Positions 2,431-60,636 of a stretch of DNA of 64,000 nucleotides are shown piece by piece. Numbering within the stretch: the stretch's first letter is position 1; every line of letters begins with the position of its first letter. A model generated the notes under the pieces. It saw only the letters and a list, made by a program, of their open reading frames with translations, made no database searches and had not been told where the DNA came from. This DNA is from Fimbriimonadia bacterium (lineage in GTDB: Bacteria; Armatimonadota; Fimbriimonadia; Fimbriimonadales; JABRVX01). Position numbers and translations under genes: made by a program. The DNA lies in assembly GCA_041483895.1 (NCBI GenBank), contig JBGPGO010000008.1, forward strand, positions 96,001 to 160,000, written 5' to 3'.

Positions 2431-5400
2431 CTACTTGCTGACCACAAGGGACTGGGGCGGGGAATAGGTGACGTTCTCCGGATTGTAGTACTCGTACACC
2501 TTGCTTGCCGGAGTGCGCGCGCGGAGCGGGTACTTCGCCTTCATCCGATAGGAGAACGTGACCGACTTGCCCTTCTCCAACTTGTCGAAGTACAGGATCG
2601 CCTGTCGGCCGGTCAGACTGAACTTCTGTATCTTTTTGGAAGACACGAGTTCGGCCAGGTCGCCGGCGATCACATCGAATCCGGGCGGCGTTCCGAGGTC
2701 CACAATCACCATGTTCGCCGCCACGCCGGGACCGTTGTAGATCACCCGAACATTGGAAGTCACGATGTCGTCTTTCGCCAGCTCATGCTTGTCGAAGTTG
2801 ACGTCGATATCCATCTCCTTCTTTTGGTCCGTGGCCTTGGCGCTCCATGGCGCATAGTAGATGCCGGTGATCTGATACATCGGCGTGCCCTTGCCCGCGT
2901 ACTCGATCCGCACTTCGTTCGCGCCGCCCTCCACGTATTGTTTGGCATCGAACTGCCGCACCACATCATAATCTTCCGGCGTGATGACGAAGGTGCCAAC
3001 CACCTTGTTGTTGACCAGCACGCGCCCCTCGCCGTTCATCTCTTTGCCTGCGGTCTTCATCGCGGTAATGAGGGCCTTTAGCGCGAACACGGTGGCTTGG
3101 GTCGAGTACCAGGTGCCGCTCGGGTCCTTGGACGAAATCAGGAATCCGATGCCCTTGTTGATCACGTCCGTGTGCCCGCCGGCCTTCATCAGCGCCAGCA
3201 GCGCGAGGGCGGTGGTCTCCACGTCGCCCGACTTGCCGCGGCTGTAAACCAATGTCTCGGTCTCGGAGTTGAAGTAGATCTTCTCTCTGTCGCGCTTCAT
3301 TGTCGCCAGCAGCATTTCGATGGCATTTGTTTTCTGCCCGGCGGCCAGTTGCGCGTTGGCGGTAAGGGCCAGCGCGTAGGCGTCGTTGACGCCTTTCAAG
3401 TTGCCGTTGAGCCATGCCAGCGCCTTCATCAAGGACGGGGACCTGCTGCCGCTTTCGGCCATTGCCCAGGCGATGTAGGCGGTGGTCTTGAACACGTCGT
3501 TCTGCCGATTGATCGCGCCTTCCGCGATGCCGCCCTGATCCGGATTCCAACTGCCGTTGCCGTTCTGTTTGGACTCGAGCCAGGATTGCGTCCGAGCCAG
3601 AAGCGCCGGATCGATGTTGTACACCTTGGCCATGTCTGAGAATTCCAGCAGGCCATAGGCTGTGAGGACCTTGTTGGCGGGCGCGTTCCCGAACCATTCG
3701 AATCCGCCGCCCTTGACCTCGAAACTGAGCAGCCGCTGGTAGCCCAGATTGATGTACTGCTCCGCCTTCATCTGAATCTCCGGCGTGATCTGCTTGGTCT
3801 GCTTCATGTAGTCCAACACCATCACGTTCGGATACGTGCTCGAGCTGGTCTGCTCGAAGCAGCCGCCCGGCATTTGGAATATCTTGTCCATTCCTTCCAG
3901 CACGGTCGCCATCAGGCCGGGATAGATTTTCACAATGACATTGGATGCGTCATTGATCGCGTTGTTCGGGAAGTCCACGGTCTTCTCGACTACGCCTCCC
4001 AGACGGTCGCTGAAACCGATGGTCTCGCGCCGACCGTCCGGCAGCACGTCGATCTCGCGGGTCATGGCATCCGACAGCCGGTCGCCTTTCGCCCGCACGA
4101 TCAGCTTGTGGCGGCCGAGACCGGTGACCTTGAAGCGGAAATAGACGGCGCGCACATCATTGGCGCCCATCGTCACAGATTGCGTGCGATCGCTGAGGAA
4201 TTCCATGCCGCCGCTCGATTCAATCTCCAGCGCGACGGTCTGCTTGCCCGGCAGGTAGTTGTAGACGGCAACCGGGATGCTCACCTCGTCGTTCTGCGTC
4301 AGCGCCACGGGGAGGTCTATGTCCACAAAGAAGTCCTGGAACACCTTGATCGGAGCGGTGGCGGAACCCATTTCGCCGTTGCGATTGACAGCGCTTAGGG
4401 TCGCGCGCCACGTCGTGATGGAGTCGGCCATGGGTACTTCAATCGTTGCTTTGCCAGTTTCGTCGGTGATGATGGCAGGGTTCCAATAGAGGGTTTCGGG
4501 GAAGTACTGCCGCATGCGCGGCTCTTGCGCGCCGCCCTGCTTTTTCTCGTCAACGGACCCATTGAAATTTGTCTTGCCCGCTGTTTCCCGCAGCAACATT
4601 CCTTCCGCAGCCGGTTTCGCGGCATTGGCGACCATTCCCAATCTTTCCTCGCCGGCAAATTCACCTCCACCGCCACCGAAGCCTCCGGCGCGGCCGCCGT
4701 CTTTGAACATTGTACGGATTCCGAAATCCCGATCTACTTCAATGGACGCGTACACAGCGGTGTATCCGCCAGGCGTATAGACGTAGGCGGCGATGTCATC
4801 AATCGTGTCGAATCGACCGTCAATCCCCGCCGACTGGATCGTGACGCCGGTATACCCGTCAGCAACCTGACCGCTGCCATTCCATACGTATCGCGGGATG
4901 CCGGCGAATCGATAGACGTGGCCCCATTGATCCTTGAGATCCGCCTGCGAAATCCAACCCCTTTGAACGCAGAGTCGCCAATCGGACTCTGTCATCGGGA
5001 CTCGGTGCTGTTCGGCGAAAGTCTTGCCCGTTTTCACAGAATATCGGGCCACAAATTGCTCTGTCGCGGATCGATAGGCTTCCGTCTTTGACTGGAGACG
5101 ATTCTTCCACTCTTGGAGGAACGGCTCGATCTTCTTGGCATAGCTGTTTTGCATGATCCCGGGCACGCCAACCGGTTCGGCTTGCGCGAACAGAGCTTTG
5201 GCCGCAAGCTGCGTGCCACCCGTATACTTGGCCGGCTCAAACATTCGTTCCGGCGTGATCGAGTGGATCTCATACCTGGGATGCAGCAGCTCCTGCTCCA
5301 AAAGGAAGTAGACGCGTTCCATGCCCGGATGCATCTCCTGCAGCGCAAACACGCTCTCGTCCACGATGCTGAGACCGATGGCGGACGCCCCCCGGCGGCC

Positions 5401-7137
5401 AACCTGGAGGACGAGCTTGGCGTTCTCGCCGGGGCGGTACGTCTGTTTGTCAGTCGTAATCGTTACGGCCAGATCGGTGGATGGAGAGACGAAAACCACA
5501 CGGCTGTCCCGAACAATCTGTCCCGCATAACTCAGACGATAGGCATGGATCCGAAGGGTGCCGGCAAGGTCTTCGGTCGGAGAAAACGTGATGCCCGCGA
5601 CCCCGCGCGAATCGGCGCGGGCGGTGCGCGTCAGCACGGTACGGCCGTCTTTGATAACGTCGAAATAGATGGTGCCGGTGGGGTCCGGCGTGGTGAGGCG
5701 GGCCTCGCAATAGAGCGGCCTGCCGGCGCGCACAAGAGAGGTGGCGGTGCGGAGGAGGATGCCGTCCGGCATCGCGTCCATCAGCACGTTGACCGTCGCC
5801 TTGCCTTCATTTCCCGCCTGGTCATGGCCGACGACGGAGACAGATTGGTTGGAGCCGGGACCGCCTACGAACACGCCGCGCGGAACACGGATCTCAACCA
5901 ATCCAGAGTCGTCCGTGATCCATTCCTGCTGTGCGAACCGTCCGTCGGGACCGGCCAGGCGCAATCGCGCGCCCGGAACCGGCTGCCCGTCCGGGGTGCT
6001 GGCGATCGCATAGAAGCCCATGTCCATCCCTGGGAGCATCGTTTTGCGCTCTGGGATCAGATTCAACAGGAGGGCCGAACCGGCGACCGGGACGGTCTTG
6101 GACATCGTCTGCTCGTGGTCCGCCGTGTCTGTCACCTTGACATCGATCTTGACCATGCCGGCGCCTTGGTCCAGCGGCTGGCCGACGAAGTGAGCGGGAA
6201 GGGTCTGATCGAAGTGGAAATGGCCCTCACCGTCGGTCTTTCCGCTGACGGTGGCAAATTCTGAGAATGTCACGTCGTAGGTAGAAAGCTTGACCTCGAC
6301 AGTGCCGCCGACGACGGGCTTGCCAAAGATGTAGTCGGTGTTGATATTGCCGCTCATCGCCTGACCGGGGGTGTAATATTCGTGGTCGGTCTTGACGGCG
6401 ATTTTGAACTTGGGCAGCACGTATCGATCGACGGTAACCGTTTTTTCCTCATCCGTGTTGCCGACCGTGGTGCGAATCTTGTACTGGCCCATGCTGATTT
6501 CGTCGGCCAATTGGAAGTCAGCGGAGACGATGCCGAACGGCGAGGTCTTGCCGATCTTCTTGAACACCTTGTTGCCTTTGGCATCTTCAATCTCCAGGGT
6601 CGTGTCGGTGTTCGCGGCGGGGCGTTTGTTGCCCGTCCACAAAGACAAAGCCCGGATGTGTATCATCTGTCCGGGCTGGTAAATCGGTTTGTCGGTTGTT
6701 ATCAGAATGCTTACCGGTTGCTGTACGATAACGGGCGATTCTAGTTGGTCGGTTTCGCCAATCGCGTCCACGCGGACCAGCATCGTGTAGTTTCCGGCTG
6801 GGACGCTCGGTGTGGTGAAGTCGGCGCTGGCGATGCCGTCGTTGCCGGTTCGGCCGGCGAAAAGGGCGTACTCTTTCCCCTTTTGGTCCTTTAGCCGAAT
6901 GTTGACCTGGGCGTTTTTCAGCTCTTCATTCGCCAAGTGATCGCGGCAGGAGACGCGCAGCGACGAGGCGCTGTCGGCGAGAAGGATGTTGGAGCCTAAT
7001 ATAACGGTTTCCAACCGTGGAACTTCGGAGGAGCCGAGGCCGGGCAGCAATACCGACGCGGCCGCCAAAAACGTGAAAAGAGTGACCTGCCACACTCGGC
7101 GTCGGATGCGGCTAATTTTGTGCATATTTGAGTCCAT
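2431..7137 (-). CDS. Alpha-2-macroglobulin family thioester protein
   Basis: MG-domain motifs TDKPIYQPGQ and YVLPKF; RQYFPETLYW; ADSITTWR; thioester motif GCFEQ (3850-3864); VETTALALLAL; WYSTQAT; C-terminal VYEYYNPE. Confidence 0.93.
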   Translation of the reverse strand: MDSNMHKISRIRRRVWQVTLFTFLAAASVLLPGLGSSEVPRLETVILGSNILLADSASSLRVSCRDHLANEELKNAQVNIRLKDQKGKEYALFAGRTGNDGIASADFTTPSVPAGNYTMLVRVDAIGETDQLESPVIVQQPVSILITTDKPIYQPGQMIHIRALSLWTGNKRPAANTDTTLEIEDAKGNKVFKKIGKTSPFGIVSADFQLADEISMGQYKIRTTVGNTDEEKTVTVDRYVLPKFKIAVKTDHEYYTPGQAMSGNINTDYIFGKPVVGGTVEVKLSTYDVTFSEFATVSGKTDGEGHFHFDQTLPAHFVGQPLDQGAGMVKIDVKVTDTADHEQTMSKTVPVAGSALLLNLIPERKTMLPGMDMGFYAIASTPDGQPVPGARLRLAGPDGRFAQQEWITDDSGLVEIRVPRGVFVGGPGSNQSVSVVGHDQAGNEGKATVNVLMDAMPDGILLRTATSLVRAGRPLYCEARLTTPDPTGTIYFDVIKDGRTVLTRTARADSRGVAGITFSPTEDLAGTLRIHAYRLSYAGQIVRDSRVVFVSPSTDLAVTITTDKQTYRPGENAKLVLQVGRRGASAIGLSIVDESVFALQEMHPGMERVYFLLEQELLHPRYEIHSITPERMFEPAKYTGGTQLAAKALFAQAEPVGVPGIMQNSYAKKIEPFLQEWKNRLQSKTEAYRSATEQFVARYSVKTGKTFAEQHRVPMTESDWRLCVQRGWISQADLKDQWGHVYRFAGIPRYVWNGSGQVADGYTGVTIQSAGIDGRFDTIDDIAAYVYTPGGYTAVYASIEVDRDFGIRTMFKDGGRAGGFGGGGGEFAGEERLGMVANAAKPAAEGMLLRETAGKTNFNGSVDEKKQGGAQEPRMRQYFPETLYWNPAIITDETGKATIEVPMADSITTWRATLSAVNRNGEMGSATAPIKVFQDFFVDIDLPVALTQNDEVSIPVAVYNYLPGKQTVALEIESSGGMEFLSDRTQSVTMGANDVRAVYFRFKVTGLGRHKLIVRAKGDRLSDAMTREIDVLPDGRRETIGFSDRLGGVVEKTVDFPNNAINDASNVIVKIYPGLMATVLEGMDKIFQMPGGCFEQTSSSTYPNVMVLDYMKQTKQITPEIQMKAEQYINLGYQRLLSFEVKGGGFEWFGNAPANKVLTAYGLLEFSDMAKVYNIDPALLARTQSWLESKQNGNGSWNPDQGGIAEGAINRQNDVFKTTAYIAWAMAESGSRSPSLMKALAWLNGNLKGVNDAYALALTANAQLAAGQKTNAIEMLLATMKRDREKIYFNSETETLVYSRGKSGDVETTALALLALMKAGGHTDVINKGIGFLISSKDPSGTWYSTQATVFALKALITAMKTAGKEMNGEGRVLVNNKVVGTFVITPEDYDVVRQFDAKQYVEGGANEVRIEYAGKGTPMYQITGIYYAPWSAKATDQKKEMDIDVNFDKHELAKDDIVTSNVRVIYNGPGVAANMVIVDLGTPPGFDVIAGDLAELVSSKKIQKFSLTGRQAILYFDKLEKGKSVTFSYRMKAKYPLRARTPASKVYEYYNPENVTYSPPQSLVVSK

Positions 7138-40789: not shown

Positions 40790-40815
40790 TTGTCTTGCAG
40801 GGAGGAGAGATACGT

Positions 40816-41787
40816 ATGAGATGCGCTATCGCATGCGTGGCATTGCTTCTGTTCGGCGCCGCCCAGGCAGTACCGAACTGGGACCTGAGCAATACCACTT
40901 GGCAATTGAATTACAAATATACCTACTCGTCGGATCCGGACGGGGAATATGGCGGCGTCGGCGGGTTTACGGGAGCGGAGCTCTCGTTCGGTTCCCAGGA
41001 CGCGGCGGGGAATGTGGCCGTGAAGATGCGTATTCCGCTGGCACAGTTCGCGGACGACTGCGCAACGACGGTAAACGCCGAACTGAAGGGTGTTGTGAAC
41101 GGGGATACGGTCAGCATCTATCCCGTTTCATCGTCCACCAGTTACGGGTTTTTCCTCTCGTGCACGGACCCCTCCTGTTTTGCCGGTGGCCATGCGATGG
41201 ATGTAACCCTTGCCATCAGCCTGCATCTGGGAGCAAACGGGCTCATCGATTCCGGTACCGGCACGATCCACGACAATCTAGATCTGACATCGTTTACATG
41301 CGGGATCAATTGGCCAACCGGATATCAGTTCGATCTCGACTCGTTTTCCGGGACCGGTGGTCCCGCGAAACGGAAGGTGAGTCTTTCCGGAAAGACGACA
41401 CTCGACAACTTCGCCGGCAATCCCGCCACCCGTCCGTTGACGCTTGACCTCACGGGCCCAACGAATCAGACCATCGGCCTGGCCATGGATTCGGGCGGCA
41501 ACTGGTCGACACAAACGGCTTTGGCGCCCGGCAGCTACACGCTGTTGTTCGGTGTGGACTATTATCTCCGCGGGAAGCTGGACCGGAACATAACGGGCAA
41601 CAGTTCGGGGCTGGATGTGGACCTGCTTGGGGGCGATGCCGCTCCGAACAACGCCGTCGATGTCCACGATCTCACAGAAATCTTCATTCACTACGCCGAG
41701 TCGTCGCCCGATGTCGATGGGAATGGAATCGTGGACCTCAAGGACCTGAATATTGTGTTCGGCAACTTTGGCCTGCAAGGCGACTAG
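40816..41787 (+). CDS. Secreted protein with C-terminal beta-sandwich + dockerin-like module
   Basis: Signal peptide; GDAAPNNAVDVHDL...DVDGNGIVDLKDLNIVFGNFGLQGD. Confidence 0.8.
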   Translation: MRCAIACVALLLFGAAQAVPNWDLSNTTWQLNYKYTYSSDPDGEYGGVGGFTGAELSFGSQDAAGNVAVKMRIPLAQFADDCATTVNAELKGVVNGDTVSIYPVSSSTSYGFFLSCTDPSCFAGGHAMDVTLAISLHLGANGLIDSGTGTIHDNLDLTSFTCGINWPTGYQFDLDSFSGTGGPAKRKVSLSGKTTLDNFAGNPATRPLTLDLTGPTNQTIGLAMDSGGNWSTQTALAPGSYTLLFGVDYYLRGKLDRNITGNSSGLDVDLLGGDAAPNNAVDVHDLTEIFIHYAESSPDVDGNGIVDLKDLNIVFGNFGLQGD

Positions 41788-44322: not shown

Positions 44323-45033
44323 CTACCTGATTTCAACCAGCTTTCTGAGGCTCTTTCGTAGTCCAAATACCAGACAGGGAACAGCAATCGTCAGTGCCGC
44401 CGGTTCCGGGACGATCAACAAATAAGACTGGTCCGTGATATCCCTGGTAGAGCTAGCTGAATCCAGCATTGAGGTGGAAAGCCCGTTCGCGGTAGCGCGA
44501 CCATCAAGACACCATGGCAGCTTTTCTCCTTCACTTCCGGGCTGAACGGTGAATTGGAAAAGCCGCGCAGTCCAGTGGCTTCCTCGAGGTTGCGAGTTTT
44601 TGATGCCGAGCAGTGTGAAAAGGCCGCGGTTTGCAATCAAATGATACGTCGAATCTGTCGGGTCCAGGTCGTTGTCATAAAGCGGTCCGTCGTCGGTGTC
44701 GTGCACGACGGTGGTCAAGAATTCGCTCGCAGGCCCGCCTATCGAACGGGCGGCTAGTATTTGGTCCGACCAGGAGCTCGAATCCGCTGACCCCATCAGG
44801 GTTAGCGCATTCAGGCAGAGCGTGATTCTGAGGAGGCCCCACTTAAACGGCTGCTGAGAGTCTAGGGCGTCGAACTGATACCAGATCTCGACGCTATCTC
44901 CGGGCCGCGCTTGCAGGACGCCGGCATTATCCGCGCCGGTTGTAGCGTTGTGCATGTAGAGCCGCACCGTGTAAGAAGAGAAACCGCTAGCCGCACTAGA
45001 GATCGCGATTAATACTGAGATGGATCGAAGCAC
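44323..45033 (-). CDS. PEP-CTERM paralog 5 of tandem array
   Basis: ARPGDSVEIW, FKWG, FTVQPGSEG, IVPEP + TM + basic tail. Confidence 0.88.
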   Translation of the reverse strand: MLRSISVLIAISSAASGFSSYTVRLYMHNATTGADNAGVLQARPGDSVEIWYQFDALDSQQPFKWGLLRITLCLNALTLMGSADSSSWSDQILAARSIGGPASEFLTTVVHDTDDGPLYDNDLDPTDSTYHLIANRGLFTLLGIKNSQPRGSHWTARLFQFTVQPGSEGEKLPWCLDGRATANGLSTSMLDSASSTRDITDQSYLLIVPEPAALTIAVPCLVFGLRKSLRKLVEIR

Positions 45034-45718
45034 TTTTCCGCCTCCTCCCCAACCAATATGTCATGCCAAAACCAAATGCACCAATCGCCGCTGGTTCTGG
45101 GACGACGAGCAAGCATTGATCGGTTATGTTCGGGTTTGTCCCATTGTCAAGCAGAAGGCGGGTAGAGAGGCCCGTGCCGGTATCTCTTCCCGGCAGGCAC
45201 CAGCACAACTTTTGCCCGACACTGCCTGGCTGAACCGTGAACTGAAAGAACCGCACCGTCCAGTCTCCTGATCTCGTCTTATTTCCGTTGACCCCAAGGA
45301 GAAAGTACAATCCCCGGTTCGCGATGAGCGGCTTGGTCGTATCAGTTGGGTCAATTGCATTGTCGTGCATCGGGCCATCATCCGTGTCGTGCGTCACCGT
45401 CGACAGGAAATCGCTCGCAGGCCCGCCGTCGGATTTCGAAGCGATGATCTGATCGGACCATGAGCTAGAATCCGAGTCGCTCATCAGCGTGAGGCCATCC
45501 AGGCAGATGGTTACCTGCTGCTGTCCCCACTTTCTTGGAGCTGTCTGAGTGAGGCCTTTGAAGTGGAACCAGATTTCGATCGTGTCTCCTGGCTTGGCCA
45601 ACAAGGTGCCGGGGTTATCGGCTCGCGTCGTCGCGTTCTCGAACCACAACCGAGCCTCGTATGCTCCGAACGCCTGCGCGGTGATGAGAGACAAAAGGAG
45701 CGTAATGGTTCTACACAT
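44996..45718 (-). CDS. PEP-CTERM paralog 4 of tandem array
   Basis: Same motifs; VVPEP..WLGRRRK; start MCRTIT overlaps the upstream gene by 8 bp. Confidence 0.88.
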   Translation of the reverse strand: MCRTITLLLSLITAQAFGAYEARLWFENATTRADNPGTLLAKPGDTIEIWFHFKGLTQTAPRKWGQQQVTICLDGLTLMSDSDSSSWSDQIIASKSDGGPASDFLSTVTHDTDDGPMHDNAIDPTDTTKPLIANRGLYFLLGVNGNKTRSGDWTVRFFQFTVQPGSVGQKLCWCLPGRDTGTGLSTRLLLDNGTNPNITDQCLLVVPEPAAIGAFGFGMTYWLGRRRKSASIHLSINRDL

Positions 45719-46388
45719 CTTTTCTCCTTCGCACGGCGAGCACCGCAAGACAGGCGATTCCTGCCATGATGCTGGGCTCTGGGACGACGACGAGGGTGTT
45801 GTCTGTAATATCTATCGTTGCATTCTTCTGATCGAGAAGCCTCGTGGATAGGCCGGTTCCGGTATTTCGGCCGTCCAGGCACCAATTGAGCGCCTCGCCT
45901 TCACTGCCCGGTTGGACTGTGAACCGAAACAGTTCCGATGTCAAATCCCAACTCTCTCTTACCCCCCAAAGCGCGTACATGCCCCTTGTCCCGACCAACG
46001 GCGCTGCGGTGTTCTTCGGATCGATGGCGAAGTCGTACATCGGTCCATTTCTCGAATCGTGATAGATGGTCGAAAAAAACCAGGAAGGATGCGCACTGGA
46101 CTTCCGCGCGACTTCCAGTTGGTCAGTCCACGAGTCCGAATCGGTGGCGCTCATGAGCGAAAGGCCATCGAGGCAGAGAGTGATCTGGAGCGTGCCCCAC
46201 TTGAACGGATTCTTCGCGTCGAGGGCGTGAAAGTTGAACATGATGGAAACGACATCGCCCGGTGTTGCCGTGACGACTGAGGGTCCCTCAAAGCCGGTCG
46301 TAACGTTGCGGAACCATAGACGGGAACTGTAGGCTCCATGTCCGGCACAGGCTGCGAGCAGGCACCCAATCAAAGCGATCCTACGCAT
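45711..46388 (-). CDS. PEP-CTERM paralog 3 of tandem array
   Basis: Same motifs; VVPEPS..VRRRK. Confidence 0.88.
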   Translation of the reverse strand: MRRIALIGCLLAACAGHGAYSSRLWFRNVTTGFEGPSVVTATPGDVVSIMFNFHALDAKNPFKWGTLQITLCLDGLSLMSATDSDSWTDQLEVARKSSAHPSWFFSTIYHDSRNGPMYDFAIDPKNTAAPLVGTRGMYALWGVRESWDLTSELFRFTVQPGSEGEALNWCLDGRNTGTGLSTRLLDQKNATIDITDNTLVVVPEPSIMAGIACLAVLAVRRRKDV

Positions 46389-47058
46389 TGCGTTTCCTCC
46401 GTAATACCACCAGCGGTCCGAGGAGCGCGACGGCTGCAGCCGGTTCCGGCGTCACCTGGACATAGTTGTCTGTGAGATCAACGGTCTTGCCCTTCTGATC
46501 GAGGATGCTTGTGGAGAGTCCGGTCGAAGAAACCCGCCCGTCGAGACACCAGTTCAATTCCTCATGTTCGCTGCCCGGCTGCACCGTGAACCGATAGAAC
46601 ATGACGTCCCAGCTTTGAGATCTCACCTTGTTTCCATCGCCTCCTAGCAGCATGTAGAGACCATGTGTGGATATGAGCGGAGAATTGATGTCCGAGGGAT
46701 CAATGGAATTGTCGTATAAGACGCCGCGGCCGATGACGGTGGTGAGGAAATCGCCAGCGGGACCGCCTTGCGACTTTGACGCTTGGATCTGCTGATCCCA
46801 GGAGTCGAAGTCCTGCTCACCCACGATTGTTAGCCCTTCCATGCAAAACGTGATCCGGATCGTGCCCCACTTGAACGGGTTGACATTGTCGAGGTTATGA
46901 AAACTGTACCAGACCTCGATCGTATCGCCTGGGTCCGCCAAAAGCGCACCGGTGTTGCCGGTGGACTTCGTCGCATTATAAAAAGACAGGCGGGCGGAAC
47001 AAGCTGCATGGCAAGCAACGGTTAAGACCAGGCAACCGATCACTGTGAACTTACGCAT
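46381..47058 (-). CDS. PEP-CTERM paralog 2 of tandem array
   Basis: Same motifs; VTPEP..LRRKR. Confidence 0.88.
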   Translation of the reverse strand: MRKFTVIGCLVLTVACHAACSARLSFYNATKSTGNTGALLADPGDTIEVWYSFHNLDNVNPFKWGTIRITFCMEGLTIVGEQDFDSWDQQIQASKSQGGPAGDFLTTVIGRGVLYDNSIDPSDINSPLISTHGLYMLLGGDGNKVRSQSWDVMFYRFTVQPGSEHEELNWCLDGRVSSTGLSTSILDQKGKTVDLTDNYVQVTPEPAAAVALLGPLVVLRRKRNA

Positions 47059-47743
47059 GGCGCTTTCTCCTTAGAACGGCCCATGATGCCAGGATGGCGA
47101 TAGATGCAGCCGGTTCCGGCACCACCTGGACATAGTTGTCCGTGATGTCGACCGCTTTCGTGGTTTGATCGAGAATGCGAGTGGAGAGACCGGTCCCGGT
47201 TACCCTTCCATCCATCGCCCACCAAAGCTCCTGCCCTTCGCTGCCGGCCTGCACTGTGAACTGGAACAGCTTCGCCATCCAGCTATGCGAGCGGGGCTGG
47301 GTTCCGATCACCCCCAGCAGGCAGTACAGACCCACGTCGGCCACTTTCGCATGCGACGCGTCTGTGGGATCGATGGCGTAGTCGTATAAGATGCCATTGT
47401 CTGAGTCGTGGAGGATGGTGACAAGGAAGTCTTCCGGCGGACCACCGAACGATTCGGCGGCCCTGATCTTATCGGACCAGTTCGCCGCGTCCGCAGCTCC
47501 CATCAGCGTCAGCCCTTCCAGCGACAGGGTGACCTGGAGGGTGCCCCATTTATTCGGACGATTCTGGTCGACCTGGTGAAAGTCGAACCAGATCTCGACC
47601 ACCTCCCCAGGAGCGGCATGCAATGCGCCTGGGTTCGACTCGCCCGTATTCGCGTTCTGAAAGTAAAGCCGGGCATCATAATTGGCTCCTGCCAAAGCGA
47701 CAGCCATCACGGCCACAGTACACGCCCAAAGTCGTCCAAACAT
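47051..47743 (-). CDS. PEP-CTERM paralog 1 of tandem array
   Basis: GAGGAGG SD; same motifs; VVPEP..LRRKR. Confidence 0.88.
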   Translation of the reverse strand: MFGRLWACTVAVMAVALAGANYDARLYFQNANTGESNPGALHAAPGEVVEIWFDFHQVDQNRPNKWGTLQVTLSLEGLTLMGAADAANWSDKIRAAESFGGPPEDFLVTILHDSDNGILYDYAIDPTDASHAKVADVGLYCLLGVIGTQPRSHSWMAKLFQFTVQAGSEGQELWWAMDGRVTGTGLSTRILDQTTKAVDITDNYVQVVPEPAASIAILASWAVLRRKRHA

Positions 47744-49513: not shown

Positions 49514-52048
49514 TCATCGATCCCCTTCCAACCCAAAATTGACCATCACGATGTTTATGTCGCGGAGGTCCGCGAGCCCTGACCCATCGAGGTCCGCGTC
49601 GGCCGTTCCAAATCGAGTGAACGTGAAGGAGAGGTCCGCGATGTGAACCACGTCGTTTTCTACCGCGTCACCGTTGGGGCCGGAGATCCAGTCTAATCGC
49701 ATGACTCCATTCAGGGTCTGGTCGGTTGTCTTGGTTGTCAGCCAGTGGTTCGATTTGAGGAACAGATCATAAGTGCTCGGCTCGGTTAAGGAAACCACGT
49801 AATTGCCCAACGGGCTCAATGCGCCTACGACGATTTCAGTTGTGGAGCCTTGCGAGTCGCCCCGTAATGAGAATGGGATTGCCTGCGGATTGCCATTGAA
49901 AGACTGAAGCTCGATGGCGCCGAAGAGCCGGGGTCCCCGGACAAACCCACCCACATAGAGACCGCCGGAATCGCCCGCAAAATACACGTTGCCCTGTGGC
50001 GAAACCGAGAGAGCCATAAGGTCGCCGCCGGAACCCGTGAAACCGTCATTCGTGCGGTACCAGAGCTGTCCGCCGTCCGGCTTCCAGGCCTGAGCGTAGA
50101 ACAGGTACGGGTTGCCTGACAAAAGCCCGAGATCATAGAGGTTGCCGTCCGCGTCTACACCCGAACTCACCAACGATCGACCTGCAAAACCCTTCTGCAC
50201 CTGCCAAACGATGTTTCCATTCTCATCAATCTTCATGACCTGTAGGAATTGGAGCCAGTAATCCAAATTAGACAGATAAATATTTCCCTTGCCATCGAGA
50301 TTCATGAGCGGAGTACCCGCCAAGTAGATTCCGTTCTTTTGCCAAATCGGTTCGCCGCCAGGACCGTACTTGATCACAAACAGTTCCGTTCTTCCGTCCG
50401 GCAACATGGAGGTCGTTGCGGTGACGGCGTTTCCCGCTGGGTCGAGGCCCAATCCGAATACAGTGGCTTGCCCCCACCGTCCACTATCGGAGCGCTGCCA
50501 ATCCAGCGCCCCATCCGGACCTAGTCGCAAGAGGATCGGAAGAGTTGAACTTCCGTCACCGGACTTGTACCAGTATTTGTCCCCGGCAACGTAGCACCTG
50601 CCTTGATCGTCCACCGTGGCAGCCGTGGCATAGTACTGCCAATCCGGGTCCGGACCGTATTCAAAAGACCACAGCAGTTCTCCCGCAGGCGAATATTTGA
50701 GAACAAAAATCGCCTGCTTTCCATACGTGGCGCGGCCTTCAAGAACAACATAGACTGCGCCTTCCCCGTCAACCGCAAGCCGGCGGGCATAGTCCAGAAA
50801 GGTATCCGTACCGGTCGTGTACGCTCGTTGCCAGACAAGATTTCCATTGGGGCCATATTTTTGGACAAATACGTTTCGATCTTTGGATGACCCTATCCGC
50901 GTGGACCCCGCCAGAATTAGATTTCCAGCTTTGTCGGCCACGATCCCGATCGGCACGGACTCCGAATCCAAGCTTCCGTATCCGGAGCGAGTCCATCTTG
51001 GTCGAAGCTGCGAGTCCAGCAGGCTGACCTGAATCTGCCCGGAGACCAGACCTGCCACCGCCAGGTCGCCATTTGCCAAGGTTTGTATGGTGGTGGCCGC
51101 CCCAGCCGGCTGAGCAAAGATAGGGATTTCGGGGATGACCTCGATGCGTATCGGAACAGCTTCCTCCACCATGTTCCAGCTATTCGTGGCTCGCACGGAC
51201 AATTGGTGGATTCCGTACGAAACACGGAGGTCTGACACATTGATTCTGCCCTGATTGCAAGGGGAGATAGTGCGGATCGCAACGCCGTCAAGAAGCACTT
51301 TGCACGAAGTCAATGGACCCGGGACCGCATCGGACACGTCAATTGTGACTCCGAGCGGCCGGATCAATGGGCTGCCTTCTGTGGGGAATACAATTGCAAC
51401 CTTTGGTCTCGATGTACCGAGCACCGCATCGTCAATTACGAGGCGAGAGGAAATCTGTTGCATTCTCAGGGGCAGGCATTGTCTGACCTCAACTTCCGAT
51501 CGCTCTTGAACAAAGACCGTCACGCGATTCGTCGACGATACCGTCGCAGCAAGATTCCGGAAAGCCCATGCGTCTTGCATCGAGGACCAGTCACCCCAAA
51601 TGACGTAATTGCTCTTTGGATCGCTGCCTCCCGTGGGGTCGATTCCAATCCGGCTCCGAACATCTGATCGGAGGAGGGTAACATCTGACTGTACATAACC
51701 GCGGACCCAAATCCCAAATATGATTTCGCCATTTACGACGGCTGGCAAGTCCACCGTCTGAAATAGGACATTGGAGATATACAGGTGGCTGTCGAGGCAT
51801 TGGCCAATCTTTGGAGTGCGAGGCTGGAAGCTGCCACGGACAACAAATTCGTAGCTACCGGAGTGACTCCCGTAGGAATTGGCAACTTCCGAAACGACGG
51901 TTGGGCTTCCTTCTGCGAGTGAATCGTACTCTAGCGTATTCTGCCAAGGAGGAAGACTTCGGGTCTCAAACCCAGAATTCTGAATCGGAAGTCCCTGCGG
52001 CCATGCGGTCGCCGACAGCGCAAATAGGATAAACCATGACTCGCGCAT
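49514..52048 (-). CDS. Secreted multidomain protein: CBM-like, Ig, SBBP beta-propeller, dockerin-like module
   Basis: IQNSGFE; repeats AVDGEGAVYV / KYSPAGELLW; NGDAVENDVV...DLDGSGLADLRDINIVMVNFGLEGD. Confidence 0.8.
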   Translation of the reverse strand: MRESWFILFALSATAWPQGLPIQNSGFETRSLPPWQNTLEYDSLAEGSPTVVSEVANSYGSHSGSYEFVVRGSFQPRTPKIGQCLDSHLYISNVLFQTVDLPAVVNGEIIFGIWVRGYVQSDVTLLRSDVRSRIGIDPTGGSDPKSNYVIWGDWSSMQDAWAFRNLAATVSSTNRVTVFVQERSEVEVRQCLPLRMQQISSRLVIDDAVLGTSRPKVAIVFPTEGSPLIRPLGVTIDVSDAVPGPLTSCKVLLDGVAIRTISPCNQGRINVSDLRVSYGIHQLSVRATNSWNMVEEAVPIRIEVIPEIPIFAQPAGAATTIQTLANGDLAVAGLVSGQIQVSLLDSQLRPRWTRSGYGSLDSESVPIGIVADKAGNLILAGSTRIGSSKDRNVFVQKYGPNGNLVWQRAYTTGTDTFLDYARRLAVDGEGAVYVVLEGRATYGKQAIFVLKYSPAGELLWSFEYGPDPDWQYYATAATVDDQGRCYVAGDKYWYKSGDGSSTLPILLRLGPDGALDWQRSDSGRWGQATVFGLGLDPAGNAVTATTSMLPDGRTELFVIKYGPGGEPIWQKNGIYLAGTPLMNLDGKGNIYLSNLDYWLQFLQVMKIDENGNIVWQVQKGFAGRSLVSSGVDADGNLYDLGLLSGNPYLFYAQAWKPDGGQLWYRTNDGFTGSGGDLMALSVSPQGNVYFAGDSGGLYVGGFVRGPRLFGAIELQSFNGNPQAIPFSLRGDSQGSTTEIVVGALSPLGNYVVSLTEPSTYDLFLKSNHWLTTKTTDQTLNGVMRLDWISGPNGDAVENDVVHIADLSFTFTRFGTADADLDGSGLADLRDINIVMVNFGLEGDR

Positions 52049-57982: not shown

Positions 57983-58063
57983 TCTCAAGTTTTCTATGTT
58001 GATTTTCGGCGAAGTTTTGATCTACCATTGGTTCATACACTGTTTTGATTGAGAGGATGGGAA

Positions 58064-58819
58064 ATGTTTCGATATTATTTTTTCGGCTCGCTTCTGACCT
58101 TGACAACATCTATCGGACTGGCGCAGTCCATCAATGTGAACCCGATTGGTGACGTGTGGTTCTATAAGAATGCCCCGAACCCGGCCACCGATCCATACGC
58201 CTTGGCATGGGGGGACGGAACCAACGATTTGGCTCCCACATTCCCTCCCGACGACTTTTATTCCTACAGCTACTTCAAGTTCGACCTTGGCGGGGCTTTC
58301 GACTCGAGCAAGACGTACACCCTCACAATGGCCACTCTGACGGTGTACCAGTACCCAGGCGCCGGATTCGATGCCGACTTGGCGAAAAATAACCCGCTGC
58401 TGGCCAGGGCTTTGGGAGATGGTTGGGAAGAATCGACGTATGCGTTCGGGGCCGGCAACCCGTCGCCAGGGTCGCTGCTCGGCGCGGGGGACATGTCGAA
58501 CTACGACAAGGCCGGATATTGGGCGATAACCATCGATCTGCTGTCGGGGGACGTCGGCGCGATAACAAATCTTTTCAACGACGCCGTACATAGCAATGGA
58601 CACATTGACTTTTCACTGTCGACGATAATGAATCCCGGCGGCCAGACGGGTACGAAATACTATACGCTGGCCACGAGGGAAGCGCAGGCGCAGTATCGTC
58701 CGACATTGGAAATAACGACAGTGCCGGAGCCGGGCGCGATGGTACTCTTTGGGCTACTAGGCTTATTAGCGCGGAGGAAAGGCCATAAAAGCACGCAAAA
58801 CGGGGTTCACGCTGATTGA
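58064..58819 (+). CDS. PEP-CTERM protein with DNRLRE/CBM96-like domain
   Basis: Signal peptide; YSYFKFDL, ATLTV, WEE, ATRE..RPTLEI; VPEPGAMVLFGLLGLLARRK. Confidence 0.85.
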   Translation: MFRYYFFGSLLTLTTSIGLAQSINVNPIGDVWFYKNAPNPATDPYALAWGDGTNDLAPTFPPDDFYSYSYFKFDLGGAFDSSKTYTLTMATLTVYQYPGAGFDADLAKNNPLLARALGDGWEESTYAFGAGNPSPGSLLGAGDMSNYDKAGYWAITIDLLSGDVGAITNLFNDAVHSNGHIDFSLSTIMNPGGQTGTKYYTLATREAQAQYRPTLEITTVPEPGAMVLFGLLGLLARRKGHKSTQNGVHAD

Positions 58820-59570
58820 GCTGTTGGTGGTCATCGCGATCATCGCGATACTCGCCGCGATTCTGTTCCCGGTCTTCGCCCGGGCCAAGGAGCTTTCTAA
58901 GGAGCGCGCCTGCGCCACCCACATGAGCCAAACGGGCAAGGCCTACCTGATGTATCAGGACGATTCTGACGGTCGCGTCCCGCCCGCATACTATTGGAGT
59001 ACCGCAGTTAAGTCCATCCCGGATAACCAAGGCTTCTGGGCTTGGCCCTGGCTGACGCGGCCGTATGCCGAGAGCTTTCAAGTGTACACCTGCCCCTCGG
59101 ACACGAAGGACGATCCCTCGTGCCACGCCGATGAATGCGGAGTCCCGGGGCCCTATAGCTGCCGGGACCAGCGCAATCCCTGCTTCGGATATCTTTTTGG
59201 CCGGTTCCCAAGTTGGGGCTACAACTTTTGGTATCTGTCACCGGGGAGGGACACGGACTATCCGGACAACGAGCCATTCTTTCCTGTGACGGCGCGAAAG
59301 ATCCAAGACCCGGCTGATACCGTTGTCTACGCGGAAAGCACTTCGCTCTTCCCCGATGGACCGGGGTATCGCATCACGTCGGATATAGGCTACATCCTGG
59401 TCTATCCGCCACAGAAGTGGACTCTAACGCTGCCGGCGGACGGAACCACGTTCGGGCATGTCTGGCCCCGCCACAACCGCGAACACGTCACCACGCTGTT
59501 TCAAGATGGACATGTCAAGTCCATCTCATTAGGAAGGTTGAAAGATGAAAGTCTTTGGGATTTGCGCTAG
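58785..59570 (+). CDS. Prepilin-type N-methylation (DUF1559-like) protein, proposed ATA start
   Basis: KARKTG/FTLIELLVVIAIIAILAAILFPVFARAKE begins upstream of the ORF-track start; TCPSD; RHNREHVTTLFQDGHVK (H-X9-DG). Confidence 0.88.
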   Translation: MKARKTGFTLIELLVVIAIIAILAAILFPVFARAKELSKERACATHMSQTGKAYLMYQDDSDGRVPPAYYWSTAVKSIPDNQGFWAWPWLTRPYAESFQVYTCPSDTKDDPSCHADECGVPGPYSCRDQRNPCFGYLFGRFPSWGYNFWYLSPGRDTDYPDNEPFFPVTARKIQDPADTVVYAESTSLFPDGPGYRITSDIGYILVYPPQKWTLTLPADGTTFGHVWPRHNREHVTTLFQDGHVKSISLGRLKDESLWDLR

Positions 59571-60636
59571 CCTGCTTTTCGCGGCATGCTGTTTCGCGCA
59601 GCAGCTCGACACCTTGGCGAGCGATGACGTATGGTGCTATGTCCATTCTCTAAATCCGACGACTGATCCGTATATGCGCGTGTGGGGTGATGGGATCGAT
59701 GCCATTCATCCCTGCCCACCTGACTTTTATCATTCTTTCTCCTATGTAAAATTCGCTTTGACGCCGACGTTTGACGCATCGAAGAACTATGCAATCACAT
59801 CGGCCAAGTTAATTCTAACTCACGCATCCGATCCCGGCTTCACGGTTGAGCAGGGCCTCGCCAATCCTCTGCGCGCTTACAGTCTTGGGGACGCTTGGAG
59901 CGAAGGCACATGGGATTTCAGTCAGGTCGGGATTGGGATTCCCTGTCCCATGGACCCATATTTTGGCGAAGGGGACCTGTCCGGATATGTCGCGACGACG
60001 GACAAATTCCCGATTCCCATTGACCTTGCGGGACCCGCTTTCTCGGACTACTTTAACGAAAGCCTCCATGCGACGGGCAAGCTGGATTTGGCGCTCTGCT
60101 CCACGATCGCGCCGGGGGATCAGGGCGGAGTGATCTTTTACAAGCTGGTGACGAAGGATCACGTTTCGGGTCTTGGGCCTCGGCTGCAGCTTGTCGCGAC
60201 GCCGGCAAAAACGGTGGCAGGAACCGTCGAACTGGATCAGTATCTTGGCCCGCTCAATCAGGTGGCGCTAACGTTCGAAGTGCGGCAGCCGGGCAGCCAA
60301 GTTGCGATCGAGACCCACACAGTGATGCTGGACGCGCAAGGAAACTACCAGTTCGGTACGGCACAGTCGGGACCGGTCGATATTGCGTGCAAGGGACCGA
60401 TCTGGTTGAGGCAGGTCCAGGGCGCCACAATTGATGGCGGTCCGGTGACGGTCAACTTCAGCCTCACCGGCGGTGACGCCGACGGGAACAACGCCGTAGA
60501 GCTCAAGGATTTCAACACCGTGCTGATCAATTTTAGCCAGTCCGTGCCGGACGGCGACGTCAATGGCAGCGGCATGGTGGACCTCAAGGACTTCAATATG
60601 GTGCTGATCAACTTCGCGCAGATCGGCGCTCCGTAG
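59545..60636 (+). CDS. Paralog of the 58064 domain with a dockerin-like C-terminal module
   Basis: DVWCY..NPTTDPY..WGDG, FSYVKF; GDADGNNAVELKDF...GDVNGSGMVDLKDFNMVLINF. Confidence 0.85.
   Translation: MKVFGICASLLFAACCFAQQLDTLASDDVWCYVHSLNPTTDPYMRVWGDGIDAIHPCPPDFYHSFSYVKFALTPTFDASKNYAITSAKLILTHASDPGFTVEQGLANPLRAYSLGDAWSEGTWDFSQVGIGIPCPMDPYFGEGDLSGYVATTDKFPIPIDLAGPAFSDYFNESLHATGKLDLALCSTIAPGDQGGVIFYKLVTKDHVSGLGPRLQLVATPAKTVAGTVELDQYLGPLNQVALTFEVRQPGSQVAIETHTVMLDAQGNYQFGTAQSGPVDIACKGPIWLRQVQGATIDGGPVTVNFSLTGGDADGNNAVELKDFNTVLINFSQSVPDGDVNGSGMVDLKDFNMVLINFAQIGAP

Follow-up and report, generated by a model that had tools for sequence, protein, structure and literature searches.

The window analysed here, a stretch of 64,000 nucleotides from a Fimbriimonadia bacterium (contig JBGPGO010000008.1), carries on its minus strand, at positions 44323–47743, five tandem open reading frames (ORFs) of 225–240 amino acids (aa) that encode PEP-CTERM paralogs with 45–52% pairwise identity. 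Each protein starts with a signal peptide, recognised by eye, and ends in a PEP-CTERM tail; between them lies a domain of ∼185 aa. The array is flanked by an NAD kinase gene on one side and an Ada-type methyltransferase gene on the other. Our subject is the family to which this domain belongs, and its possible role as a receptor for the X-module–dockerin (XDoc) tails carried by secreted proteins of the same genome. The five genes are as follows.

47051..47743, minus strand: paralog 1, first in the operon, 230 aa; domain at 47123–47680; PEP-CTERM tail; lacks both conserved Cys residues
46381..47058, minus strand: paralog 2, 225 aa; domain at 46453–47001, modelled (predicted local distance difference test, pLDDT, 96.4); Cys72/Cys171
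45711..46388, minus strand: paralog 3, 225 aa; domain at 45786–46331; PEP-CTERM tail above the TIGR02595 cut-off
44996..45718, minus strand: paralog 4, 240 aa; domain at 45104–45661; PEP-CTERM tail above the cut-off; C-terminal extension that gives a 38-bp overlap
44323..45033, minus strand: paralog 5, 236 aa; GTG start after a GGAGG site; domain at 44416–44973

A preliminary description of this DNA had reported five genes of about 230 aa, and both the ORFs and their junctions, which overlap by 8, 8, 8 and 38 base pairs (bp), are as it gave them. The ribosome site of each downstream gene sits within Arg/Lys codons of the basic tail of the preceding gene, so that the overlaps follow naturally from the PEP-CTERM ends. 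At the longest junction (44996–45033) the bases that form the stop codon in the three 8-bp overlaps are read as a sense codon, and the 10-residue extension of paralog 4 was therefore probably gained by stop loss.

Alignment columns for KWG, FTVQ.GS, GLST, TD and PEP are invariant in the five paralogs. Most of the shared motifs listed earlier stand, the exceptions being Y.FTVQ in place of F.FTVQ in the 46381 copy and NITD in place of D(I/L)TD in the 44996 copy; the two cysteines are indeed present in four copies and both absent from paralog 1. Two of the five proteins pass the TIGR02595 cut-off; inspection by eye shows the motif, the hydrophobic stretch and the basic end in the remaining three. 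The exosortase anchoring proposed in the preliminary description is thus matched by a PEP motif, a transmembrane stretch and a basic end in the array proteins, and by a single exosortase gene in the genome (PF09721, E 1.7e-45). Searches of Pfam and NCBIfam gave no family for the domain (PF00963 matches 0 of the 5 proteins), and a PDB profile search with it likewise gave no family and no cohesin match.

The genome holds not five but 29 profile matches to the domain. Apart from the window array these comprise an 11-gene array divided between contigs C12 and C11 (83 bases are identical in their overlapping ends), five copies on C29, four on C1 and four singles. Every one of the 29 has one domain per ORF, as do the 18 full matches of the relatives G001 and G002, in agreement with the one-domain-per-gene layout first suggested. 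Intact PEP-CTERM tails are found on 21 copies, a β-sandwich plus dockerin-like tail on five, and three copies are broken or have atypical tails; the 21 PEP-CTERM forms are the largest of 45 clusters among the 93 PEP-CTERM candidates of the genome. In a tree of 28 own-genome copies, 21, including all five array members, form one genome-specific clade (support 94/91), within which two of the XDoc-tailed copies nest. The family is rare, with 43 hits among 1.84 billion representative sequences (37 at E 1e-10 or better), and its copy number varies across genomes from 29 to 9–10 and then 1. Decay is visible at three sites: a copy whose anchor is truncated and behind which stands an orphan fragment of a dockerin (C11:2685-3786, L005), a broken copy (C29:10911-11327, L008) and a frameshifted or altered tail beside a repeated element at a contig end (C19:58759-59529, L007).

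Predicted fold and candidate ligand

An AlphaFold2 model of the paralog 2 domain, built on 45 sequences, is a confident β-sandwich with nine long strands and a two-helix insertion (pLDDT 96.4, predicted template modelling score 0.91); the model and full-length structural alignments show the nine-stranded jelly-roll characteristic of cohesins. Foldseek fills its first ten rows with cohesins or chains that contain one, 3ul4_A being the best (E 3.9e-4). VIA-align matches 134 residues of cohesin 6kg8 with Z 8.2 and rmsd (root-mean-square deviation) 3.4 Å, cohesins standing at Z 8.2–7.9, although best Z values of 7–8 are common without kinship. Since VIA-align ties cohesins with CnaA domains despite the Foldseek ranking, we conclude that the modelled fold is of the cohesin/CnaA kind and not that of a canonical cohesin. 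The cohesin-like β-sandwich of the preliminary description therefore holds as a predicted fold and as a Foldseek ranking, but cohesins are not separated from CnaA adhesin domains. Matches to the domain in the ESM Atlas all score below 0.9, a cluster combining cohesin and PEP-CTERM being a weak lead only (0.77).

According to passages of PMC5429695, the two faces of a cohesin are formed by strands 9-1-2-7-4 and 8-3-6-5, the latter binding dockerin, and a helix often lies between strands 4 and 5. Given the inferred strand numbering, helices 62–75 of the model would occupy the place of this helix. Polar residues are conserved at inferred outward positions (Q49 in 79% and R165 in 75% of sequences), and the array copies retain most of the inferred face residues, paralog 2 having R49 and S165 instead. 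Position 4 on the first strand is Arg in 89%, and Asn179 is 95% conserved. The isopeptide bond of CnaA domains depends on Lys-Asn triad chemistry; no conserved Lys is present on strand 1 in the alignment.

Co-variation of cysteines points to a disulfide. Of 64 sequences, 26 have a cysteine at position 53 of the domain (Cys53), and each of these also has exactly one of Cys111 (20 sequences) or Cys152 (six), and Cys111 is found in only one of the 38 sequences that lack Cys53. In the array the pair is Cys53 and Cys152. A disulfide whose partner Cys has switched is therefore likely, in line with the earlier suggestion of a disulfide bond.

All 14 close pairs in the family are under purifying selection, with ratios of non-synonymous to synonymous change (dN/dS) of 0.04–0.45, and the corresponding ratio of observed differences (pN/pS) is 0.29 on both inferred faces. 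Within the window array dN/dS is unusable, synonymous sites being near saturation (synonymous differences per site, pS, 0.62–0.76). Chance or artefact as the source of the array is ruled out by the 29 copies and the purifying selection, and the domain represents a real, uncatalogued family. Purifying selection and equal rates on the two inferred faces also lead us to reject diversifying selection on a binding face, so that the diversified specificity envisaged in the preliminary description is left without support; many similar copies are more likely to raise the dose and to overlap in specificity than to differ sharply in it.

The candidate ligand is abundant. Strong dockerin-like matches occur in 120 frames of the genome, 119 of them at the extreme C-terminus, and are preceded by a conserved 90-aa module. 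Three lie in the window, outside the array.

41350..41784, plus strand: X-module and dockerin-like tail of the secreted protein 40795–41787
49517..49966, minus strand: X-module and dockerin-like tail of the β-propeller protein 49514–52048
60184..60633, plus strand: X-module and dockerin-like tail of the protein 59545–60636, modelled; matched type II XDoc structures

The AlphaFold2 model of the last of these (pLDDT 96.8) consists of an X-module followed by a two-loop, two-helix dockerin. For this 150-aa tail Foldseek places type II XDoc chains in all of its ten best rows (E 1.2e-9 to 2.4e-8, template modelling score ∼0.7). Its ESM Atlas cluster carries PF00404 with a score of 0.97 and points to Armatimonadota as the probable group of the host; the dockerin helices are unusually hydrophobic. 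The dockerin-like secreted proteins noted earlier thus bear real XDoc tails, on ∼120 proteins. A Pfam cohesin above cut-off is found in none of 41 genomes compared, and a divergent receptor is therefore needed for these tails.

The cargo does not resemble that of a cellulosome. When 40 of 115 XDoc proteins were sampled with Pfam at E 1e-6, three peptidases and several β-propellers were found, none of the 40 matched a glycoside hydrolase, and 24 had no match at all, so that hidden enzymes among the latter are possible. With no glycoside hydrolase in this sample and no tandem-cohesin scaffoldin, a canonical cellulosome is rejected, and the ‘cellulosome-like’ function first proposed is not borne out. 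How close family genes lie to XDoc genes tells us nothing in this genome, where the latter are found everywhere: of 66 other PEP-CTERM genes, 17 are within 3 kb of one as well. Prediction of a complex of the domain, an XDoc tail and two Ca2+ ions gave scores of 0.26 and 0.17 against a mark of 0.32, and weighs neither way.

Other features of the genome also concern tails and surface proteins. In the window, a passenger domain of 210 aa is common to two nearby genes, 58049–58819 (plus strand) and 59545–60636 (plus strand), with 37% identity (E 1e-40); one of the two ends in PEP-CTERM and the other in XDoc. A second large PEP-CTERM family, of ∼430 aa, has 19 frames (e.g. C10:71606-73036 and C1:226030-227391), and two XDoc proteins share its passenger. 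Ten secreted proteins of the genome (G000), such as C9:103447-104403 and C2:108538-114666, end in a third conserved tail, of ∼255 aa, which has no Pfam match and is possibly another surface-retention tag; this tail is also found at L023:1741-2535 in G002 and at L025. A bacterial α-2-macroglobulin gene (1568 aa) lies at 2431–7137 on the minus strand of the window, and two dispersed families of short repeats (∼30 and ∼40 bp), often in inverted pairs, are found at C6:21-133 and at dozens of intergenic sites on many contigs.

Distribution in the phylum and a sister family

The 41 relatives comprise 16 XDoc-rich genomes (26–120 matches) and 25 XDoc-poor ones. A narrow profile finds the array family in three genomes of its own taxonomic family and weakly in one other, and an iterated search recovers a distant PEP-CTERM subfamily in f4 (profile probability 88%, E 3e-6 to the array family), where genomes carry 62–120 XDoc tails with 1–4 family copies. 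Taken together, the domain and its distant relatives are present in nine of the 16 XDoc-rich relatives and in none of the 25 XDoc-poor ones. In a wider sample of 251 genomes from the phylum, with only 12 candidates scored per genome, the domain was found in seven of 22 XDoc-rich genomes and none of 229 others. It was not found in three genomes that are rich in PEP-CTERM (14–69 matches) and poor in XDoc. Because the genomes are kin, these co-occurrence counts are not independent and are descriptive only.

Searches with the f4-type or merged profile, some of the scans without a positive control and others with controls that responded, gave no match in G008, G017, G023, G029, G032, G035, G040, G073, G132, G164, G168, G172 and G194; G164 and G172, in which no match to the domain was found, are closed XDoc-rich genomes. 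At loci L128–L133 of the f18 genomes a fusion of the domain with XDoc belongs to a conserved gene cluster, in which another XDoc gene is flanked by two other PEP-CTERM genes.

G164 has only four Pfam PEP-CTERM matches, one of which shows the same strand pattern as the array domain and defines an uncatalogued sister family (A11/A12). A profile of this family matches 23 of 51 dockerin-positive genomes of the phylum sample and none of 200 negative ones. A weak A12 match in the XDoc-negative G019 (E 4.8e-4) is only partial, lies in a frame of 159 aa that has no PEP-CTERM, and looks spurious; G007 and G028, with one dockerin each, have no A12 match. Five XDoc-poor genomes with 1–3 dockerins each were picked for having both a dockerin and the sister family, not for adjacency, and in these seven of nine dockerin genes abut a sister-family member, one is a gene away and one is unlinked. 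In G095 (L162) and G275 (L164) the sister domain is fused behind a dockerin; adjacency or fusion to XDoc genes is also seen in G013 (L153), G216 (L154), G258 (L155), G253 (L156) and G239 (L157–L160). Adjacency, fusion and restriction to dockerin-positive genomes amount to strong guilt by association, which points to the sister family as a partner of XDoc and makes it the best candidate for a phylum-wide receptor.

The sister family was not found in the three f1 or the 12 f4 genomes, and is present in the XDoc-rich G040. The anchored forms are therefore complementary, with the array family or its f4 relatives in f1 and f4 and the sister family elsewhere. By profile comparison the f4 subfamily matches the sister family with a probability of 58% (E 1e-4, 140 columns), and a merged profile matches it at 63%, with a score of 36.9 compared with at most 14.2 in 30 column shuffles. 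The array and sister families thus appear to be linked only indirectly, through the f4 subfamily (88%, then 58%). A PDB sequence search with the sister family found no family.

Proposed function and alternatives

We propose that the array is part of a lineage-specific, exosortase-anchored family of receptors for the XDoc tails of the bacterium's own secreted proteins, a proposal that we judge to be evenly balanced between right and wrong. The tie of the sister family to XDoc genes in other genomes lends the receptor role indirect support. It would build on what is directly established, namely the gene structure, copy number, tails, exosortase gene, predicted folds and distribution. Each array protein would be exported by its signal peptide, acquire one disulfide, be processed by the exosortase and be held at the envelope. 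The Ca2+-loaded XDoc tail would dock on the outer face of the receptor domain, strands 8-3-6-5, and ∼120 cargo proteins (propellers, proteases and unknown domains) would be displayed non-covalently on the surface. The receptors would be single domains, one per gene, and not a multi-cohesin scaffoldin; SdbA is an anchoring protein with one receptor domain. The five XDoc-tailed family copies could act as adaptors that extend the layer outward. On a wider scale, the phylum may have an undescribed two-tier display in which exosortase-anchored cohesins, unrecognisable by sequence, capture up to ∼120 XDoc proteins per cell, with receptor types that differ by lineage (f1 having the array family, f4 a relative of it and the remaining lineages the sister family) and branching cohesin–XDoc adaptors, the five-gene array being a set of such receptors; the chances of this broader picture fall slightly below even.

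A number of observations weigh against the receptor role, among them the caveats on Z values and on the kinship of the genomes given above. The preliminary description had named absence from most dockerin-rich relatives as evidence against its proposal. Such absence is found with the narrow profile, which misses 12 of 13 dockerin-rich genomes outside the own family, but not with the wider profiles, which miss seven of 16; the co-occurrence that it suggested examining thus holds in that the domain and its relatives are confined to XDoc-rich genomes, and fails in these seven. Six new hits in the phylum sample are XDoc-tailed cargo; in f18 the closest relatives of the domain are such cargo and not anchors, and the face residues conserved in f1 and f4 are not kept there. 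Direct profile comparison of the array family with the sister family is not significant (0.5–1.8%). With the faces inferred by strand alternation, the difference in conservation between them is marginal (entropy 2.13 compared with 2.51, p 0.05). VIA-align places CnaA pilin/adhesin domains first (Z 8.9–8.0), counted as tied with cohesins since they lie within 1 Z unit, and type II cohesins reach only Z 6.6–6.8.

The top VIA-align rows are what would be expected if the domain, within the CnaA/cohesin superfold, served as a surface adhesin or formed part of a coat, binding a ligand from outside such as a glycan, the matrix or other cells and displayed on interchangeable tails, the XDoc receptor being another protein. 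In G001 and G002 the domain forms the N-terminal tip of immunoglobulin-like stalks of six Big_3 repeats, or stands ahead of lectin or propeller domains, in adhesin-like arrangements that also count against a receptor. Three different tails are found on the domain, and exchange of PEP-CTERM and XDoc tails is general in the genome, being seen in four further passenger families (five clusters in total); in the tree, copies with XDoc tails fall among those with PEP-CTERM, and the decrease in copy number from 29 to 1 is typical of surface families. In f18, moreover, the relatives are cargo with XDoc tails, and their genomes contain the sister family as well. Such a module would leave unexplained why the domain was found in none of the XDoc-poor genomes sampled, even those rich in PEP-CTERM, why it is just f1 and f4 that lack the sister family, and why the two are linked by profile. 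This is the main rival to the receptor role, though less likely than not.

A mixed case, in which the family descends from an XDoc receptor and one or a few conserved copies keep that job, would assign the recent expansion, including the array, to other ligands or to a decoy or structural coat. The genome-specific clade that contains the array, the small number of copies with which f4 genomes manage their many XDoc tails, and the three broken or atypical copies would fit such an expansion. The close pairs are nevertheless still under purifying selection, and most inferred face residues persist in the array copies; we consider this case unlikely. It is very improbable that XDoc tails need no cohesin at all, through self-association or direct Ca2+-dependent binding to the envelope, and that the co-occurrence reflects a horizontally spread toolkit of surface proteins. 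Six XDoc-rich f4 genomes that show neither the array family nor the sister family, which also count against a receptor, would suit this explanation, as would the hydrophobic dockerin helices, but in six or more genera XDoc lies tightly next to the sister family or is fused with it, which argues against the explanation.

Comparison with known display systems

The proposed receptor role has its closest counterpart in the type II cohesin–XDoc anchoring of Clostridium (Acetivibrio) thermocellum and A. cellulolyticus, with an SdbA-type single-cohesin anchor and the XDoc of CipA/ScaA (PDB 2b59, 5g5d, 4u3s, 2bm3). As in that system, the ligand in the window folds as an X-module and dockerin, the candidate receptor is one β-sandwich with a cell anchor, and adaptor-like fusions of the domain with XDoc exist. 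Here, however, the anchor is PEP-CTERM/exosortase and not SLH or sortase, XDoc is found on ∼120 separate cargo proteins and not on one scaffoldin, tandem cohesins are lacking, and the sampled cargo has no glycoside hydrolases. The domain itself, at 185 aa with extra helices, a hairpin and a disulfide, differs from type II cohesins in these additions, in lacking a PF00963 match and in its low Z values with them.

Its best Foldseek matches are type I and non-cellulosomal cohesins (OlpA 3ul4, ScaC 4uyp, CaCohA2 6kg8/6kgc, C. perfringens 2vo8 and Archaeoglobus 2xdh), which align over their full length (127–134 residues, Z 6.7–8.2), but with an identity of only 6–15%, an rmsd of 3.4–4 Å and a tie with the unrelated CnaA domains. 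With the latter (RrgB 2x9z, CppA 5xcb, PrgB 8beg, AgI/II 3qe5) the domain shares the highest Z values, surface display and, in relatives, tip-on-stalk forms as in CnaA adhesins; identity is 5–13%, however, and the strand-1 Lys and any pilus or sortase context are absent. The tail motif and single exosortase gene are those of PEP-CTERM/exosortase surface proteins (TIGR02595, PF07589, PF09721).

Outside the clostridia, dockerin-tailed peptidases and other enzymes are described, in sections of PMC8542988, for the cellulosome-like complex inferred in Candidatus Stygibacter (Cloacimonadota). That complex has one large multi-cohesin scaffoldin with recognisable cohesin and carbohydrate-binding module domains, whereas the array genome has many single domains that are unrecognisable by sequence. 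Adaptor scaffoldins also combine cohesin and dockerin, according to part of PMC12484212, and excerpts of PMC11535203 report that cohesin and dockerin domains are absent from Fervidibacter. The main text of a genome survey of cellulosome bacteria makes no mention of an Armatimonad, and its supplements might list such genomes (PMC11557425). In the full-text literature, mostly without subscription journals, nothing was found that joins PEP-CTERM with cohesin or dockerin, and only unrelated work combines PEP-CTERM with an Armatimonad. If binding holds, the modelled pair would be a new variant of cohesin–dockerin display.

That dockerin-like tails occur where no cohesin can be recognised is a standing puzzle, and for most PEP-CTERM proteins no job is known. 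In the XDoc-poor G013, G239, G253 and G258, adjacent gene pairs allow a direct test with a single candidate receptor and a single candidate ligand. Should the receptor role prove true, it would provide a new and probably orthogonal cohesin–dockerin pair for designer enzyme complexes, it would join two protein-sorting systems that the searched literature never pairs, and it would name the missing receptor for a tag carried by ∼120 proteins of this genome.

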